From Escherichia phage PMBT16: a DNA stretch of 64,000 bases. A program made the translations under genes and the position numbers. Shown piece after piece: positions 49,245-55,940 of the stretch (its first letter is position 1; every line of letters starts with the position of its first letter). The notes below the pieces were generated by a model. It was given only the letters and a program-made list of their open reading frames with translations. It had not been told where the DNA came from and searched no databases. The DNA lies in the sequence record PP554575; one strand, given 5' to 3'.

Positions 49245-49292
49245 AGGCACAAAAGGCGGGAATGTTTCCCGCCAACACAAAGGAAAAAGATC

Positions 49293-49688
49293 ATGAATAA
49301 GAACGTACGCCGCATCATGAACGAACTGGCAAACGATGAAAAAATTATTGATATGCATTTGGTCAACATTTGCCGCCGTTGTGTAACATATAACAACCGC
49401 GCCGCAAAAGCGCGTGAGATGAACGCAAAAGGCACCTTAAAGCCTTTTCAGGTGGTTGTAAAATCTATAACTAATGCAGCAGGCCAGGCGCATGACCACA
49501 ACAACGGGAGCACTAATATTGATCCGTCTTACGTAATGAAACGGATCCGGACTTGCAAGAATAAAGAGCAGGTGTATAACGTCATAGATTGGCTGGACTC
49601 CCTGGGCGATGTGGTTTACAACAGGTTTTCTGCAGCTATTGAAATTCAGTTAGACAGGTTGGACGGGAAAGTACTGAAAACTTACTGA
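49293..49688 (+). CDS. Hypothetical protein (131 aa)
   Basis: RBS AAAGGAAAAAGATC. Confidence 0.5.
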   Translation: MNKNVRRIMNELANDEKIIDMHLVNICRRCVTYNNRAAKAREMNAKGTLKPFQVVVKSITNAAGQAHDHNNGSTNIDPSYVMKRIRTCKNKEQVYNVIDWLDSLGDVVYNRFSAAIEIQLDRLDGKVLKTY

Positions 49689-49736
49689 GTTTATTTTTAG
49701 ATGGCCTTGACTCCAGGGCCATCAATAAAGTAAACT
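49689..49736 (+). promoter_or_regulatory. Repeated palindrome/promoter element, copy 1
   Basis: TTTATTTTTA-GATGGCC-TTGACTCCAG-GGCCATC-AATAAAGTAAAC; 7-bp inverted repeat encloses a TTGACT -35-like hexamer. Confidence 0.5.
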
Positions 49737-49768
49737 AATCCCAGTTAAGCGAAAAAGGAGGCTTGAAG

Positions 49769-49888
49769 ATGAGCACTACACGCCAGCACACAAAGGTAAC
49801 TATTATCGTTTGCATCATTGGTTACATCCTGGCGCAAATGTTGATGGGTAGCGCCAATGATTTCGCAAAATTTTTCTTAAACTTTTAA
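49769..49888 (+). CDS. Small hydrophobic peptide (39 aa, unlisted)
   Basis: ATG after AAAAAGGAGG; TM-like segment VTIIVCIIGYILAQMLMG. Confidence 0.4.
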   Translation: MSTTRQHTKVTIIVCIIGYILAQMLMGSANDFAKFFLNF

Positions 49889-49916
49889 TTGACAAGCTAA
49901 CTTAAATCAGTATAAT
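49889..49916 (+). promoter_or_regulatory. sigma70-type promoter
   Basis: TTGACA-16 nt-TATAAT. Confidence 0.6.
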
Positions 49917-49968
49917 ACTAAGCACATAAACGGGAAAACTTCCCAGAACACCAAAAGGAGAAAACATT

Positions 49969-50319
49969 ATGAATACTTCCATCACTATGACCGCCGAAGA
50001 AAAAGCCCTGCAGATCGCCGCTCTGAAAAAACAGATCGCAGACCTTGAGAATAAGATCGATAACTTTGAAATCGACGAGGACAAGTACGACGATAAATAT
50101 GATGAATGGTTGGACGAGATCTACGGCGAAATTATGATCGGAAACATTTCTTTTCTTCCGTCGCGTATCCTCAAGGAGCTAGATCCTATCGCTTACCGCT
50201 GCGGATTTAGCGACTACATCGACAGCCTGGATATTGAGGACGATGAAGAATACCAGGAATTACAGACAGAGCTTGAAGAAGTGAAAGAAGAGCTTGCAGA
50301 ACTGGAAGAAAACGAGTAA
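49969..50319 (+). CDS. Acidic coiled-coil protein (116 aa)
   Basis: RBS AAAGGAGAAAACATT; Glu/Asp-rich heptad-like sequence. Confidence 0.5.
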   Translation: MNTSITMTAEEKALQIAALKKQIADLENKIDNFEIDEDKYDDKYDEWLDEIYGEIMIGNISFLPSRILKELDPIAYRCGFSDYIDSLDIEDDEEYQELQTELEEVKEELAELEENE

Positions 50320-50368
50320 ATTTATTTTTAGATGGCCTTGACTTCAGGGCCATCAATAAAGTAAACTT
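50319..50368 (+). promoter_or_regulatory. Repeated palindrome/promoter element, copy 2
   Basis: AAATTTATTTTTA-GATGGCC-TTGACTTCAG-GGCCATC-AATAAAGTAAAC. Confidence 0.5.
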
Positions 50369-50408
50369 TAGACTGTTAACACTTAACCAATACAGAGGAG
50401 TTAAAACC

Positions 50409-50654
50409 ATGGCCGCACTAATTACCAAATATTATGCCCCTACCAACACCAAAAGCGCCCGTATCATGGTAAAAGGCTTCGGACGTAAAAAGGTGTACAC
50501 CTGGGATTATTCCCTAGACATGGAAGACAACTACACCAACGCGATGACAGATTTTATTAATGAGCTGAACACGCGGATCTTGACAAATTATAAAATTACC
50601 GATATTGCCTATATAGGGGAAGGCGGGATCTGTTTTGTCGGTATCGTCAAATAA
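50409..50654 (+). CDS. Hypothetical protein (81 aa)
   Basis: RBS AGAGGAG. Confidence 0.5.
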   Translation: MAALITKYYAPTNTKSARIMVKGFGRKKVYTWDYSLDMEDNYTNAMTDFINELNTRILTNYKITDIAYIGEGGICFVGIVK

Positions 50655-50730
50655 ACTGTTTTTTCGGTGGTCCTGGTAGCAGGGCCATCTATAAAGATAG
50701 TTTATCAGCACAATGAAAGGAGAAAGTAAC

Positions 50731-51084
50731 ATGATCAGCGGGGCAAGTTTTATTATTGGCGCTATTGCTACGGCTTTAATTGTAAACAAGATCCAATCCA
50801 AAAACGAAAAAGAGAGCAACGCGCTTACAGAATACCCATTTTGGGTATTCAACGACAATGAAGACTACATTATCAAGTACAAGGATGAGAAAGGGGACCA
50901 GGTAACACCGAGACCGATACCAGCTTACAAGATGCAAGAAACATTATACCGCTTAAAGGCTGGCGGCGCAAAAATCGTAGACTTTTGGGGATATGATTGC
51001 AAGGATCAGGAGACTATAAAACGTCGTATCCGGGCGATTCAGGCAAATATTGAGATCAGTAAAGGGGGCGTTTATGAAAATTAA
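50731..51084 (+). CDS. Putative membrane-anchored protein (117 aa)
   Basis: ATG after AAAGGAGAAAG; N-terminal hydrophobic segment ASFIIGAIATALIV. Confidence 0.45.
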   Translation: MISGASFIIGAIATALIVNKIQSKNEKESNALTEYPFWVFNDNEDYIIKYKDEKGDQVTPRPIPAYKMQETLYRLKAGGAKIVDFWGYDCKDQETIKRRIRAIQANIEISKGGVYEN

Positions 51085-51271
51085 TTTCGAAAAAATTGTA
51101 AAGCGCCCCCACGATTCCGAAGAGCTGCCGGAACGCCGCCAGCGTAACAATAAACTGAATAAACCGAAAAGGTTCGGGAAGATCTGGAGAAATCACTATG
51201 ATCGCAAATTACCGAGCCTGCTTTTGGAACGTGAACGACAGGCGGAACGATACCGCCACAAAGACAAATAG
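51074..51271 (+). CDS. Small highly basic protein (65 aa), possible nucleic-acid binder
   Basis: ATG overlapping upstream gene end; Arg/Lys-rich (RRQRNNKLNKPKRFGK). Confidence 0.4.
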   Translation: MKINFEKIVKRPHDSEELPERRQRNNKLNKPKRFGKIWRNHYDRKLPSLLLERERQAERYRHKDK

Positions 51272-51279
51272 CAACCAAC

Positions 51280-51306
51280 GCCCCGCCATTGTGCGGGGCT
51301 TTTTAT
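51280..51306 (+). terminator. Rho-independent terminator
   Basis: GCCCCGC-CATTGT-GCGGGGC followed by TTTTTATTT. Confidence 0.7.
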
Positions 51307-54473: not shown

Positions 54474-54824
54474 ATGAAAGTCAAACTATATTACCTTAAT
54501 GAGCTTAACCCCCTTGCCCAGGTCCGCGCCCTGGCTAATACCTTGATTTGTGAGAAATCTGTATATTGTGTTGAGCTTAACGCCATGCGTGAACGTCTCA
54601 AAGGTGGTTACTTTGACATCCATGCTGCAATCAACGGCCTGAATATGGAATTTATACGCCTACGTAACAGCCGCCGGAATCTGGCAAGAATGGAACAAGA
54701 TCCGGCCCACCTTCGTAAACTGGTTATTGAAAATCATCTGATGTTCAATGCCGAGGGTGATTATTACCATTTTAACCGCAAACGTTGGTACCGTGGCGGC
54801 AATACAGACAAGGGTGCAAAATAA
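54474..54824 (+). CDS. Hypothetical basic protein (116 aa)
   Basis: Compact ORF; Arg-rich C-terminus. Confidence 0.45.
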   Translation: MKVKLYYLNELNPLAQVRALANTLICEKSVYCVELNAMRERLKGGYFDIHAAINGLNMEFIRLRNSRRNLARMEQDPAHLRKLVIENHLMFNAEGDYYHFNRKRWYRGGNTDKGAK

Positions 54825-54860
54825 GGCCCCTAGCAGGGCCTGCAGCGATATAATCACATA

Positions 54861-54896
54861 AAGGCCATGCAACCGCATGGCCTTTATTATTTTGGC
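54861..54896 (+). terminator. Rho-independent terminator
   Basis: AAGGCCATGC-AACC-GCATGGCCTT hairpin followed by TATTATTTTGG. Confidence 0.7.
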
Positions 54897-54941
54897 GTTA
54901 CAACGGCATACGGGGCGCTTAAAAATTTTTTAAATAAGCAC

Positions 54942-54970
54942 TTGCATCATGTCCGACAATATGGATAATA
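54942..54970 (+). promoter_or_regulatory. sigma70-type promoter
   Basis: TTGCAT-16/17 nt-GATAAT. Confidence 0.5.
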
Positions 54971-55028
54971 AGAGTTGTCGAGGGGGCTATGCCTCCAATC
55001 ATTAACCGGATAGATAGGAGTTAAAATC

Positions 55029-55313
55029 ATGGCTATTGTTACCGCTGGTGATGTAGTAGAAATGGAAGCAAAATACTTAAAAACTGGTATGCATATCCTA
55101 CGCAACGATCTTGAACTGGTCCTGACAATGGTTGACTATAACCCAGGGCAAGATTATCCAAGTGTTGACTACTTTTTTGAGTATGTCGATGAAGAGCTAA
55201 AAGAGGATGAGGCCTACTGCGGAGAATTCTGCAACTACTTTTGCCCTGACGAGGTTGTAAAAGTTATCTACCAACCTGGCGTACCTTTCCCGCTACACGC
55301 TATCAATAAATAA
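55029..55313 (+). CDS. Hypothetical acidic protein (94 aa)
   Basis: RBS ATAGGAGTTAAAATC. Confidence 0.5.
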   Translation: MAIVTAGDVVEMEAKYLKTGMHILRNDLELVLTMVDYNPGQDYPSVDYFFEYVDEELKEDEAYCGEFCNYFCPDEVVKVIYQPGVPFPLHAINK

Positions 55314-55368
55314 ACCTGGCGGGGCCGAAAAGGCCCCCAATTATGAAAATAAAGAGAGGCAAATCATC

Positions 55369-55602
55369 ATGATGGAACAAATTAAACGCGCCGAGGCTAT
55401 TAATGGCAACGTGATCTATTTTGTCAGCAAAAACGAAAAAGGCGTACCCTATGCGGCGGTAATAGTACAGCCTGACGGCGATTATTGGTGTACTGTGTAC
55501 GGCGCTTATTCTTTTGGGCGTCCAGTGCATGATAAAATTTTGAAAGTAGCGAACCCTACCGGGAAAAATATCACAGCAGAAAAATTTTTTGAAAATAGTT
55601 GA
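55369..55602 (+). CDS. Hypothetical protein (77 aa)
   Basis: RBS AGAGAGGCAAATCATC. Confidence 0.5.
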   Translation: MMEQIKRAEAINGNVIYFVSKNEKGVPYAAVIVQPDGDYWCTVYGAYSFGRPVHDKILKVANPTGKNITAEKFFENS

Positions 55603-55626
55603 CATGACCATATAAGACTGTAGTAT
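55599..55626 (+). promoter_or_regulatory. sigma70-type promoter whose -35 overlaps the upstream stop codon
   Basis: TTGACA-16 nt-TAGTAT; hairpin GGGGGCAACAAGCCCC follows. Confidence 0.55.
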
Positions 55627-55678
55627 ATAAATCAAAGGGGGCAACAAGCCCCACCAACCACAAAGAGGATAAAAAATC

Positions 55679-55858
55679 ATGGCTATTATTGCAAAGACTG
55701 AGATCGTAGGCTTAGATTCTATTCTTCTCGCATATGAGGAAGCTATAGAAATGTATGTGGTTTCCTATGGTGAATATATCCGTGAATATAAATCTATTGA
55801 TCTAGCTTTTGAATGTTATATTCGCCAGGTCAATAAAGCATATGATGATTATCGTTAA
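55679..55858 (+). CDS. Small protein (59 aa, unlisted)
   Basis: ATG after AAGAGGATAAAAAATC. Confidence 0.45.
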   Translation: MAIIAKTEIVGLDSILLAYEEAIEMYVVSYGEYIREYKSIDLAFECYIRQVNKAYDDYR

Positions 55859-55864
55859 AATAGT

Positions 55865-55893
55865 TTGACAACAGTCAACAATCTGGTAAAGTG
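55865..55893 (+). promoter_or_regulatory. sigma70-like promoter (weaker -10) followed by 5' UTR hairpin
   Basis: TTGACA-16 nt-TAAAGT; hairpin GCGGGAATACTTCCCGC at 55905-55921. Confidence 0.4.
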
Positions 55894-55940
55894 TACTACA
55901 TAGCGCGGGAATACTTCCCGCCATTAATGAGGGTGATTTA

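Follow-up and report, generated by a model that had tools for sequence, protein, structure and literature searches.

A repeated, structurally conserved hairpin between promoter and ribosome-binding site in early genes of an rV5-like coliphage

Introduction

Pairing of the 5′ end greatly slows cleavage of an RNA by RNase E, and the ompA and papA mRNAs are stabilised by 5′ stem-loops (reviewed in PMC3997798). The 5′ stem-loop of T7 gene 10 raises mRNA stability and expression when transplanted and is in use as a portable mRNA stabiliser (PMC6146998). In the PeSLs of T4-like phages, a strong early promoter of the sigma-70-like type is combined with a stem-loop that has a G run and a C run (PMC2839356, PMC4122927), and a role as recombination joints has been proposed for these units (PMC2839356). 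Small RNA hairpins also lie shortly downstream of early promoters in the nut sites of lambda (boxA + boxB) and the put RNAs of HK022. The boxB hairpin of lambda presents a conserved 5-nt loop that is read by an N-type protein, and HK022 put needs two larger stem-loops. An RNase III processing site comprises ~20 bp or more of double-stranded RNA.

Here we describe hairpins in the window, a 64,000-nt stretch of Escherichia phage PMBT16 (PP554575), an rV5-like coliphage (Vequintavirus). Around half the small early genes of this phage have a short, GC-rich hairpin a few bases past the predicted transcript start. As in ompA (hp1), papA and synthetic 5′ hairpins (PMC3997798), the element is a stem-loop that does not depend on a particular sequence, is predicted to lie at the very 5′ end and is clear of the ribosome-binding site; it differs in forming a family, with at least 11 members per genome on phage early promoters, and in its shorter stems (5-9 bp) and putative effect. 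The T7 gene 10 leader has the same order of a phage promoter, an immediate 5′ stem-loop, an unstructured leader and a strong Shine-Dalgarno (SD) sequence. However, it is served by the phage's own RNA polymerase from late promoters, its hairpin begins at +1 whereas ours are predicted at ~+3 to +6, and the sequences show no similarity. The hairpins resemble PeSLs in their composite make-up, in their repeated intergenic occurrence before small genes of unknown function or ORFans, and in their location at breakpoints of gene gain, loss and replacement between close relatives. In PeSLs, however, the stem-loop precedes the promoter and has been shown to act as a terminator (PMC4122927), whereas the hairpins described here are downstream of the -10 box, within the predicted transcript and without a U tract. 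A 51-nt repeat at 49687, 50318 and 54063, the hairpin of which surrounds the -35 box, is nearer to a PeSL than the cassette hairpins are. Unlike lambda nut sites, the hairpins follow many promoters rather than one per operon and have neither a boxA, nor conserved loops, nor GNRA-like pentaloops. An identity as a lambda N nut site was rejected on the ~10 nt of A-rich sequence before the hairpin, which contains nothing boxA-like, and on the variable loops of 3-14 nt; an RNase III site of the T7 early RNA type was rejected because stems of 5-9 bp are far too short.

Results

In the window, a GC-rich hairpin follows the -10 box of 11 sigma-70-type promoters, of which ten lie between 49.2 and 57.4 kb. 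In every cassette the hairpin is situated between a TTGACA-like -35/TAnnnT -10 pair and the SD sequence, and the module runs from promoter to hairpin, A/C-rich linker without U tract, SD and ATG. The gap between the -10 box and the hairpin is 9-12 nt in 10 of the 11 cassettes and 15 nt in the degenerate copy P49889, and the distance from the 3′ end of the hairpin to the ATG is 18-32 nt. All stems (5-9 bp) begin with a G run, and the loops span 3-14 nt. A pyrimidine-purine step with the purine at position 8 past the -10 box occurs in 10 of 11 cassettes, from which an overhang of 2-5 nt is predicted. This promoter geometry supports the original prediction that the hairpins occupy 5′ UTRs. Three hairpins are near-identical and take the form GGCGGGAA-NNN-TTCCCGCC; the remaining ones are other sequences at the same position, with at least seven distinct stem sequences among the window cassettes. 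The GCGGGAANNCTTCCCGC pattern, with up to three mismatches, has 9 strand-hits in the window against 0.70 expected, a number that none of 100 shuffles reached. An additional match to this pattern, at 52918-52934, is within a coding region and is likely due to chance. Hairpin-linker-SD units are also present without a recognisable promoter at 55320-55336 and 57708-57722. Rfam returned no match.

The near-identical hairpins belong to three cassettes, which like all others are on the + strand. P49217 (49217..49295) is composed of TTGACA-16-TAAACT, a 10-nt gap, the 8-bp hairpin GGCGGGAA-TGT-TTCCCGCC (49255-49273; leader dG -14.6 kcal/mol, z -4.0), the linker aacacaaaggaaaaagatc and an ATG at 49293; the hairpin is retained in 12 loci, with a loop change from TGT to ACA, and is labelled 'putative transcriptional terminator' in the HdK5 GenBank record. 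P51767 (51767..51854; TTGACA-16-TATACT, 10-nt gap, ATG 51852) has the 8-bp hairpin GGCGGGAA-AAC-TTCCCGCC at 51805-51823 (dG -14.6, z -6.0); among 14 loci, L003 has GGUGGG, which preserves pairing through a U.G wobble, and two variants have one mid-stem mismatch. P55865 (55865..55943) has a TG-extended promoter, TTGACA-16-TAAAGT, followed after 12 nt by the 7-bp hairpin GCGGGAA-TAC-TTCCCGC (55905-55921; dG -11.6, z -1.7) and an ATG at 55941. The original coordinates of these copies were exact for the second and third and off by 1 for the first. The degenerate copy that had also been noted, at 49931-49948, is real, with its stem at 49932-49944: P49889 (49889..49971) combines TTGACA-16-TATAAT with the 5-bp hairpin GGGAA-AAC-TTCCC (dG -5.8, z -1.9) and an ATG at 49969, and a hairpin of 4-5 bp is retained in 12 loci.

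Different GC-rich hairpins had been noted at the same position in three further cassettes, and all were found there, the first of them at 52521-52541 rather than from 52526. This hairpin, GGGGGCAA-GACGT-TTGCCCCC (dG -15.9, z -4.4), belongs to P52484 (52484..52568; TTGCAA-16-TATATT, 9-nt gap, ATG 52566), for which 13 loci hold eight hairpin alleles; every allele folds, at -12 to -18, and they include a change from CAAG/UUUG to CGAG/CUUG and a two-sided insertion, GGCGGGC/GCCCGCC. P55599 (55599..55681; TTGACA-16-TAGTAT, 11-nt gap, ATG 55679) has GGGGC-AACAA-GCCCC at 55638-55652 (dG -10.5, z -1.9), a 'terminator' in the HdK5 annotation; it is retained in 12 loci, three of which have a 4-nt loop deletion with the fold intact. 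P57338 (57338..57423; TTGACA-17-TAACAT, 11-nt gap, ATG 57421) has GGGCA-AAAG-TGCCC at 57378-57391 (dG -8.7, z -2.1; 13 loci).

Four more hairpins occupy the same position beyond those originally listed. P53779 (53779..53865; TTGCAA-16-GATAAT, 10-nt gap, ATG 53863) carries GGGGA-GCTAA-TCCCC at 53817-53831 (dG -9.3, z -3.2), with nine alleles in 13 loci, several of them with the longer stem GGGGAG/CUCCCC. The weakest case is P54942 (54942..55031; TTGCAT-16-GATAAT, 12-nt gap, ATG 55029), in which GGGGGC-TAT-GCCTCC at 54982-54996 contains one G.U pair (dG -9.7, z only -0.5); its 11 alleles in 13 loci fall into three hairpin forms, every one still folding. P56082 (56082..56164; TTGACA-16-TAGACT, TG-extended, 10-nt gap, ATG 56162) has GGGCG-N14-CGCCC with an inner 2-bp helix at 56120-56143 (dG -14.9, z -3.7). 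P30443 (30443..30530; TTGACT-17-TAAGAT, 11-nt gap, ATG ~30528), outside the range first considered, has GGGGAGG-CACT-CCTCCCC at 30483-30500 (dG -14.1, z -2.4).

Among the 11 hairpin leaders the folding energy ranges from -5.8 to -15.9 kcal/mol; ten have z-scores between -1.7 and -6.0, and 54982 has -0.5. For 12 further promoter leaders of the window the range is 0 to -6 kcal/mol, and their z-scores lie between -1.7 and +1.6. Leaders in the window and in the phages Phapecoctavirus tuntematon and Justusliebigvirus muut form two classes, one unstructured (0 to -1.6 kcal/mol, ATG ~29-37 nt past the -10 box) and the other with one strong hairpin (-9 to -18 kcal/mol, ATG ~44-57 nt past the -10 box).

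Conservation in related phages, on which the original prediction hinged, is clear. Ten cassettes were compared with 4-13 other loci each, all or nearly all from Vequintavirus, and the hairpin persists at all ten, the sole exception being one locus, L003, at P55865. Loops are the most diverse at the nucleotide level (0.216), above third codon positions (0.121) and the two stem arms (0.073 and 0.130), and the -35 box does not vary (0). Across 20 substitution-only variants the summed destabilisation is +23.5 kcal/mol versus +60.5 ± 11.8 kcal/mol for random changes (P ~0.001), and wobble-mediated and two-sided stem changes are seen among orthologs. Loop sequence, loop length and stem length differ both between cassettes and between orthologs. 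What is conserved is thus structure rather than sequence, as for an element that acts through its structure. Stem conservation is only moderate, with weaker stems in several single-genome variants, and the count of G.U against A.C, which could have tied pairing to the sense-strand RNA, is nearly balanced, at 8 versus 6.

The same layout, the GGCGGGAA...TTCCCGCC hairpin included, recurs in ~20 copies in tuntematon and ~12 in muut, and a cassette orthologous to P56082 is found in both. Two stem families, GGCGGGAA/TTCCCGCC and GGCGGCA/TGCCGCC, dominate and cross genera. Mycobacteriophages such as Thonko have an analogous hairpin layout.

Discussion

We propose, with a probability of roughly one half, that each hairpin forms a stem-loop which starts 2-5 nt into the mRNA, is followed by an unstructured leader and slows RppH/RNase E-dependent decay. 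Judging from promoter geometry, host sigma-70 RNA polymerase would start 7-8 nt past the -10 box, at the conserved pyrimidine-purine step; 2-5 unpaired nt would open each early phage mRNA, and the GC-rich stem-loop of 5-9 bp directly behind them would be its first structured element. Such a base-paired 5′ end would offer poor access to RppH and to the 5′-end sensor of RNase E, so that a longer-lasting message is expected, and the A/C-rich linker, having no nearby pairing partner, would keep the SD open and at a distance from the stem. As a unit, promoter, hairpin, linker and ribosome-binding site would form a standard expression cassette, reused before many small early genes and, because it is repeated, also a recombination joint. 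Of the functions originally offered, mRNA stabilisation, here a predicted role, fits best in view of the fixed position near the predicted start, the conservation of structure but not sequence, and the separation of the hairpin from the ribosome-binding site.

Emory et al. reportedly found in 1992 that protection is lost beyond ~2-4 unpaired nt; a start at position 5-6 would leave 5-7 unpaired nt in some cassettes. A search of the literature found no mapped start sites or half-lives for this phage group. Because about half of the promoters in this region lack a hairpin, the hairpin is not essential for early expression. The shared 16-nt spacer indicates common descent of the cassettes, and this could account for part of the constant spacing.

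The hairpins could alternatively function within read-through transcripts from upstream promoters, as intercistronic stabilisers or processing boundaries. If an endonuclease cut the AU-rich RNA of the promoter or the A/C linker, the hairpin would shield the 3′ end of the upstream message from exonucleases and could, in addition, cap the 5′ end newly made on the downstream message, an arrangement that resembles REP elements or the hairpins that RNase III leaves in T7 early RNA. The promoter-less hairpin-linker-SD units suggest such a role independent of the 5′ end; moreover, no terminator separates the upstream stop codon from most hairpin promoters, and since few cassettes are preceded by one, most hairpins should also be inside read-through transcripts. 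We nevertheless consider this explanation unlikely, as it does not account for the constant 9-12 nt spacing from the -10 box in three genera; it is compatible with 5′-end protection and does not exclude it. A second alternative is that a protein of the phage or the host binds at the hairpins and acts on early transcripts or early promoters, for instance by turning early genes off as later transcription sets in, or by marking phage mRNAs so that they escape phage-stimulated decay. In its favour are the two stem families common to several genera, the G run that begins every stem and the overlap with +3 to +25, a good roadblock position. Stem and loop lengths vary, however, loop sequences vary freely between copies and orthologs, the common half-site spacing needed by a dimeric DNA binder is absent and no candidate protein was identified, which makes such a site quite unlikely; the same variation across cassettes and orthologs disfavours the sequence-specific RNA-binding regulator or processing nuclease that had been suggested.

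Gene swapping at the cassettes raises the question of whether they are mainly recombination joints, promoter-hairpin-leader units kept for gain, loss and swap of small genes, in which the hairpin itself would matter little for expression; T4-like PeSLs provide a precedent. In a few cases cassettes do coincide with breakpoints: locus L002 lacks the gene at 55941-56078, deleted by recombination between two CCATTAATGAGG leaders, L011, L012 and L013 have the P55865 promoter followed by other hairpins and other genes, a P52484-type hairpin replaces that of P57338 in L137, and homology with tuntematon begins exactly at the hairpin. Yet recombination requires identity rather than a hairpin, the fold is kept while the sequence drifts, and most cassettes share too little (the hexamers plus 15-20 nt) to be efficient substrates. 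We therefore regard this as highly unlikely to be their main role; it is more probable that recombination is a by-product than that it is what selection maintains. Intrinsic terminators or attenuators, ending upstream transcripts on the + strand or stopping antisense transcription on the - strand, are exceedingly improbable, even though the HdK5 and Paula records call such hairpins 'terminator' and a simple scan lists five of them, read on the - strand and with 5 T in 8 nt, as terminator-like. On the + strand a U tract follows none of the 11 hairpins (0-3 T in the 8 nt past the stem), alternative pairing that would support the originally suggested attenuation is not evident, and the hairpin is downstream of a promoter that it would also terminate. 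The - strand has 1-5 T, mostly non-contiguous, with four or fewer in 6 of 11 cassettes; the corresponding gaps in tuntematon and muut (gtatcacata) have no T tract, and an A-rich gap is expected of a start region. An identity as intrinsic terminators was also rejected on location, all 11 hairpins being between a -10 box and the SD of the following gene rather than at the end of a transcription unit.

Protection of mRNA by a 5′ hairpin, the reading we favour, is a known trick, and databases enter such hairpins as terminators, if at all; in these phages it would take the form of a repeated, conserved module.

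Results

Hairpins between promoter and ribosome-binding site

Nucleotides 49000-57500 of the window share 92-95% identity with many Escherichia phages of the rV5-like genus Vequintavirus, among them DrSchubert, pangalan, HdK5, slur16, and FFH2, and the matching records annotate this stretch almost entirely as hypothetical proteins. From ~44 to 58 kb, the plus strand carries a series of small genes, and many of these have a sigma-70-type promoter to themselves. A search with GCGGGAANNCTTCCCGC (≤3 mismatches) returned 9 matches, counting both strands of the palindrome, against 0.7 expected, and none of 100 shuffles reached this number. 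Three good copies of the near-identical GCGGGAA-type hairpin lie on the plus strand at 49255-49273 (stem GGCGGGAA-TGT-TTCCCGCC), 51805-51823 (GGCGGGAA-AAC-TTCCCGCC), and 55905-55921 (GCGGGAA-TAC-TTCCCGC), with a degenerate copy of 5-bp stem at 49932-49944. The original prediction had also placed different hairpins at the equivalent position of other cassettes; its three examples (52521-52541, 55638-55652, and 57378-57391) were recovered, and four more are present on the same strand at 53817-53831, 54982-54996 (weak), 56120-56143, and 30483-30500, the last outside the range first considered. The observation is confirmed and was, if anything, somewhat understated.

All 11 hairpins lie, as proposed, between the -10 box and the ribosome-binding site, in one common layout: a TTGACA-like -35 box, a spacer, a TAnnnT -10 box, a gap, the stem, a linker, a Shine-Dalgarno sequence (SD), and ATG. 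The promoter spacer is 16 nt (17 nt in two cassettes) and the A-rich gap 9-12 nt (15 nt in the degenerate copy); stems are 5-9 bp with a G-rich 5' arm, and loops are 3-14 nt. The linker is A/C-rich (for example, ACCAACACAAAAACC) and leads to the SD and to an ATG 18-32 nt past the stem. Transcription in E. coli is expected to initiate at a pyrimidine-purine step; the purine of such a step stands 8 nt past the -10 box in 10 of the 11 gaps and otherwise 7 or 9 nt past it, so that 2-5 unpaired nucleotides are predicted 5' of the stem. Two further intergenic hairpins, at 55320-55336 (GGGGCCGAAAAGGCCCC) and 57708-57722 (GGGCCGAAAAGGTCC), are likewise followed by an A/C-rich linker and SD, with no recognizable promoter upstream.

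RNA folding of the predicted 5' UTRs, proposed as a check on the original prediction, gave -5.8 to -15.9 kcal/mol for the hairpin leaders, with z-scores of -1.7 to -6.0 in 10 of 11, whereas the other promoter leaders in the window (n = 12) are essentially without structure. The leaders thereby form two classes, one short and lacking a hairpin, with ATG ~29-37 nt after the -10 box, and one with a hairpin insert of ~20 nt and ATG ~44-57 nt after it.

Two further features lie nearby. A set of three imperfect direct repeats, each 47-57 nt long (AAATTTCTCAGTACTCGATCTGTTTTTCGTTTTCTGAATCGGATTTT), occupies 47617-47802 with spacings of 65 and 74 nt, surrounded by short ORFs only, and the last overlaps a long AT-rich hairpin from the terminator scan. 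At ~58.3-60.9 kb, ~2.5 kb of low G+C content (0.39) with short ORFs only separates converging plus- and minus-strand gene blocks; the DrSchubert and S127 BCL3 records carry no gene annotation there, and the map in the rV5 genome paper likewise shows a 'non-coding' box.

Conservation of the fold

Orthologous cassettes were compared across 4-13 other loci each, all or nearly all from Vequintavirus; an IMG/VR search via a neighboring protein yielded only two close relatives, so the orthologs were drawn from GenBank phage records, together with two IMG/VR contigs. Cassettes are named by their start position in the window. Every cassette retains a hairpin in every compared genome, the sole exception being P55865 in one locus (L003), where the loss accompanies a rearrangement. 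Retention holds across eight alleles at P52484, nine at P53779, and eleven at P54942. The changes include a loop replacement at P49217 (TGT to ACA), wobble-mediated stem changes (CAAG/UUUG to CGAG/CUUG; GGCGGG to GGUGGG), and a two-sided insertion in HMD-6 that lengthens the stem (GGCGGGC/GCCCGCC); in some alleles the stem grows as the loop shrinks correspondingly. Per-site diversity reaches 0.216 in loops, against 0.151 for promoter spacers and 0.121 for third codon positions; the stem arms stand at 0.073 and 0.130, and the -35 box is invariant (0).

Because indels shift the arms out of register in the MAFFT alignments of the orthologs (A1 and A2), pair counts for formal covariation were replaced by folding of each variant against a random-mutation null. 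The 20 substitution-only variants cost a summed +23.5 kcal/mol relative to the window allele, where random substitutions would cost +60.5 ± 11.8 (P ~0.001, a value that is indicative rather than exact since the variants are phylogenetically non-independent). Several single-genome variants weaken a stem, as expected of mildly deleterious polymorphisms or of sequencing errors in unverified records. Among unique hairpins, pairs possible only in the sense RNA (G·U) numbered 6 against 4 possible only in the antisense (A·C), and then 8 against 6, counts with no power to tie the pairing to the sense RNA. Three records, L136, L137, and L139 (GenBank MG065635, MG065659, and MG065658), are UNVERIFIED entries named 'Campylobacter phage C12, C5 and C7'; with ~93% identity to this E. 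coli Vequintavirus region, their named host looks doubtful.

Conservation extends beyond the genus as layout. Phapecoctavirus tuntematon and Justusliebigvirus muut, of another subfamily, resemble this region at the DNA level in patches only, and the layout recurs ~20 times in the early region of the former and ~12 times in that of the latter. Most of these copies have the hairpin beginning 8-12 nt past the -10 box and a few 14-16 nt past it; the intervening gap reads gTATCACATAG and is conserved, and the commonest stems are the originally described GGCGGGAA...TTCCCGCC and GGCGGCA-ATGG-TGCCGCC. When IMG/VR was scanned with a pattern that demanded a promoter correctly spaced from GGCGGGAA, the matches included more contigs of these groups and mycobacteriophages, the sequence likeness of the latter being partly an ascertainment effect of a pattern that forced GGCGGGAA. 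Mycobacterium phage Thonko (L030) has four copies of TTGACA-N17-TAnnnT-10 nt-GGCGGG-AANNA-CCCGCC-~10 nt-SD-ATG, and three further loci (L052, L058, and L061) belong to one 55.9-kb contig which, in the stretch searched, is ~85% identical to mycobacteriophage Imvubu. The multi-copy contigs place the layout in more than one lineage, and the post-promoter hairpin may be a design that recurs across unrelated phages. Had the feature been unconserved among relatives, the original prediction would have been refuted; it is clearly conserved.

Cassettes at recombination joints

The cassettes coincide with mosaic joints. In one related locus (L002), the gene at 55941-56078 and the next promoter and hairpin have been lost via recombination between two CCATTAATGAGG leaders. 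In three others (L011, L012, and L013), different hairpins (GGTGGTGG.../GGCGGCA...) and different genes follow the P55865 promoter, the P57338 site of L137 holds a P52484-type hairpin, and homology to tuntematon starts exactly at the hairpin. This behavior parallels that of the promoter-early stem-loops (PeSLs) of T4-like phages, which sit at gene-swap breakpoints (PMC2839356, PMC4122927). In PeSLs, however, the stem-loop precedes the promoter and its function as a terminator has been demonstrated (PMC2839356, PMC4122927), whereas here it is 3' of the promoter; the opposite order and the terminator role of PeSLs point to a likeness in behavior, not to membership.

A second intergenic repeat, of 51 nt, directly follows stop codons at 49687-49737, 50318-50368, and 54063-54113, with a diverged copy at 50653-50703 and a partial one at 58184-58203. 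It consists of a T-rich stretch and a hairpin, GATGGCC-N10-GGCCATC, whose loop holds a -35 box (TTGACT) with TAAACT or TAAATT as -10 box 18 nt further on; these promoters have no hairpin downstream. This repeat is closer to the PeSL layout than the post-promoter hairpin is, and it fails as a canonical terminator on both strands.

Discussion

We propose, with a probability of about one half, that the hairpin is a 5' stabilizer of early messages from the predicted start sites. A stem-loop at the 5' terminus would shield the message from 5'-end-dependent decay, and the unstructured A/C leader 3' of it would leave the ribosome-binding site open. This role is favored by a hairpin that keeps a constant distance from the predicted start and lies clear of the ribosome footprint, and by selection for the fold and not the sequence; that half of the promoters lack a hairpin counts against it. 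The predicted 2-5-nt overhang lies at the edge of the protective range. RNase E cleaves much more slowly when the RNA 5' end is base-paired, and ompA and papA mRNAs are stabilized by 5' stem-loops (reviewed in PMC3997798); the 5' stem-loop of T7 gene 10 stabilizes mRNAs onto which it is transplanted (PMC6146998). Given the two hairpin-linker-SD units that lack a promoter, the hairpins may also work in read-through transcripts as protectors of 3' ends or processed 5' ends. Neither start-site nor transcriptome data for Vequintavirus and its relatives turned up in our search of the open-access literature.

Termination is the role that database records assign: HdK5 (L001, MK373780) has post-promoter hairpins annotated 'putative transcriptional terminator' at 754-772 and 7127-7141, and phage Paula (LR865361) has such hairpins labeled 'terminator'. 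The position of the hairpins and the missing U tract make these labels probably wrong. On the plus strand the 8 nt 3' of the stem hold 0-3 T, and a terminator 3' of a promoter would stop that promoter too; attenuation, one of the functions first suggested, falls with the lack of a U tract after any of the 11 hairpins. On the opposite strand the count is 1-5; these T, owed to the A-rich start region, are mostly interrupted and missing from most copies in the other genera, which would make a minus-strand terminator weak at best. Recognition by a regulator or nuclease is disfavored: a nut site would need boxA, which is absent, and the loops vary; stems of 5-9 bp are too short for RNase III; and a sequence-specific DNA operator is unlikely given that arm length, loop length (spacing), and sequence all vary. 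The arms are also too short for cruciform DNA, and an N4-type promoter hairpin would lie on the other side of the start and these promoters have ordinary sigma-70 boxes. Rfam gave no match in the whole window at gathering thresholds, and chance-level matches only at 49-58 kb in E-value mode.

A more speculative reading, which we consider improbable, makes the hairpin a tag that separates phage early from host messages and, more widely, makes promoter-5'-hairpin cassettes a recurrent, mobile early-gene module of unrelated phage groups, coliphages and mycobacteriophages included. With such leaders, the phage could accelerate the decay of host mRNA and still spare its own early messages; or a putative factor could read the tag and shut early genes off together. 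The T4 protein Srd makes RNase E more active against host mRNA (PMC4980113), and the rV5 genome paper proposed an Srd-like protein. The divergent promoters around 20.9 kb were searched for a homolog: the ORF at 20940-21839 has no Pfam match, its sole PHROG match is to a family of unknown function, and the gene layout makes it probably distinct from rV5 gp11.

In the rV5 genome paper, promoters and terminators are listed but the post-promoter hairpin goes unmentioned, and we found no description of it in these phages in the open-access literature. A 5' stabilizing stem-loop is well known as a kind of element; what is new is a conserved, multi-copy, cross-genus early-promoter module with PeSL-like recombination behavior and a reversed order of parts. 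If the hairpins stabilize, 'terminator' labels in several database records would be corrected, and the cassettes would supply a natural set of promoter, 5'-hairpin, and ribosome-binding-site parts of graded strength, as well as a direct test of phage RNA protection during host RNA degradation. The link to gene-swap breakpoints carries the PeSL idea, that regulatory cassettes are recombination joints, beyond the T4-like phages. Stabilizing hairpins would represent a portable design for fast, strong early expression common to three large and much isolated coliphage groups, the rV5-like, phAPEC8-like, and phi92-like phages.
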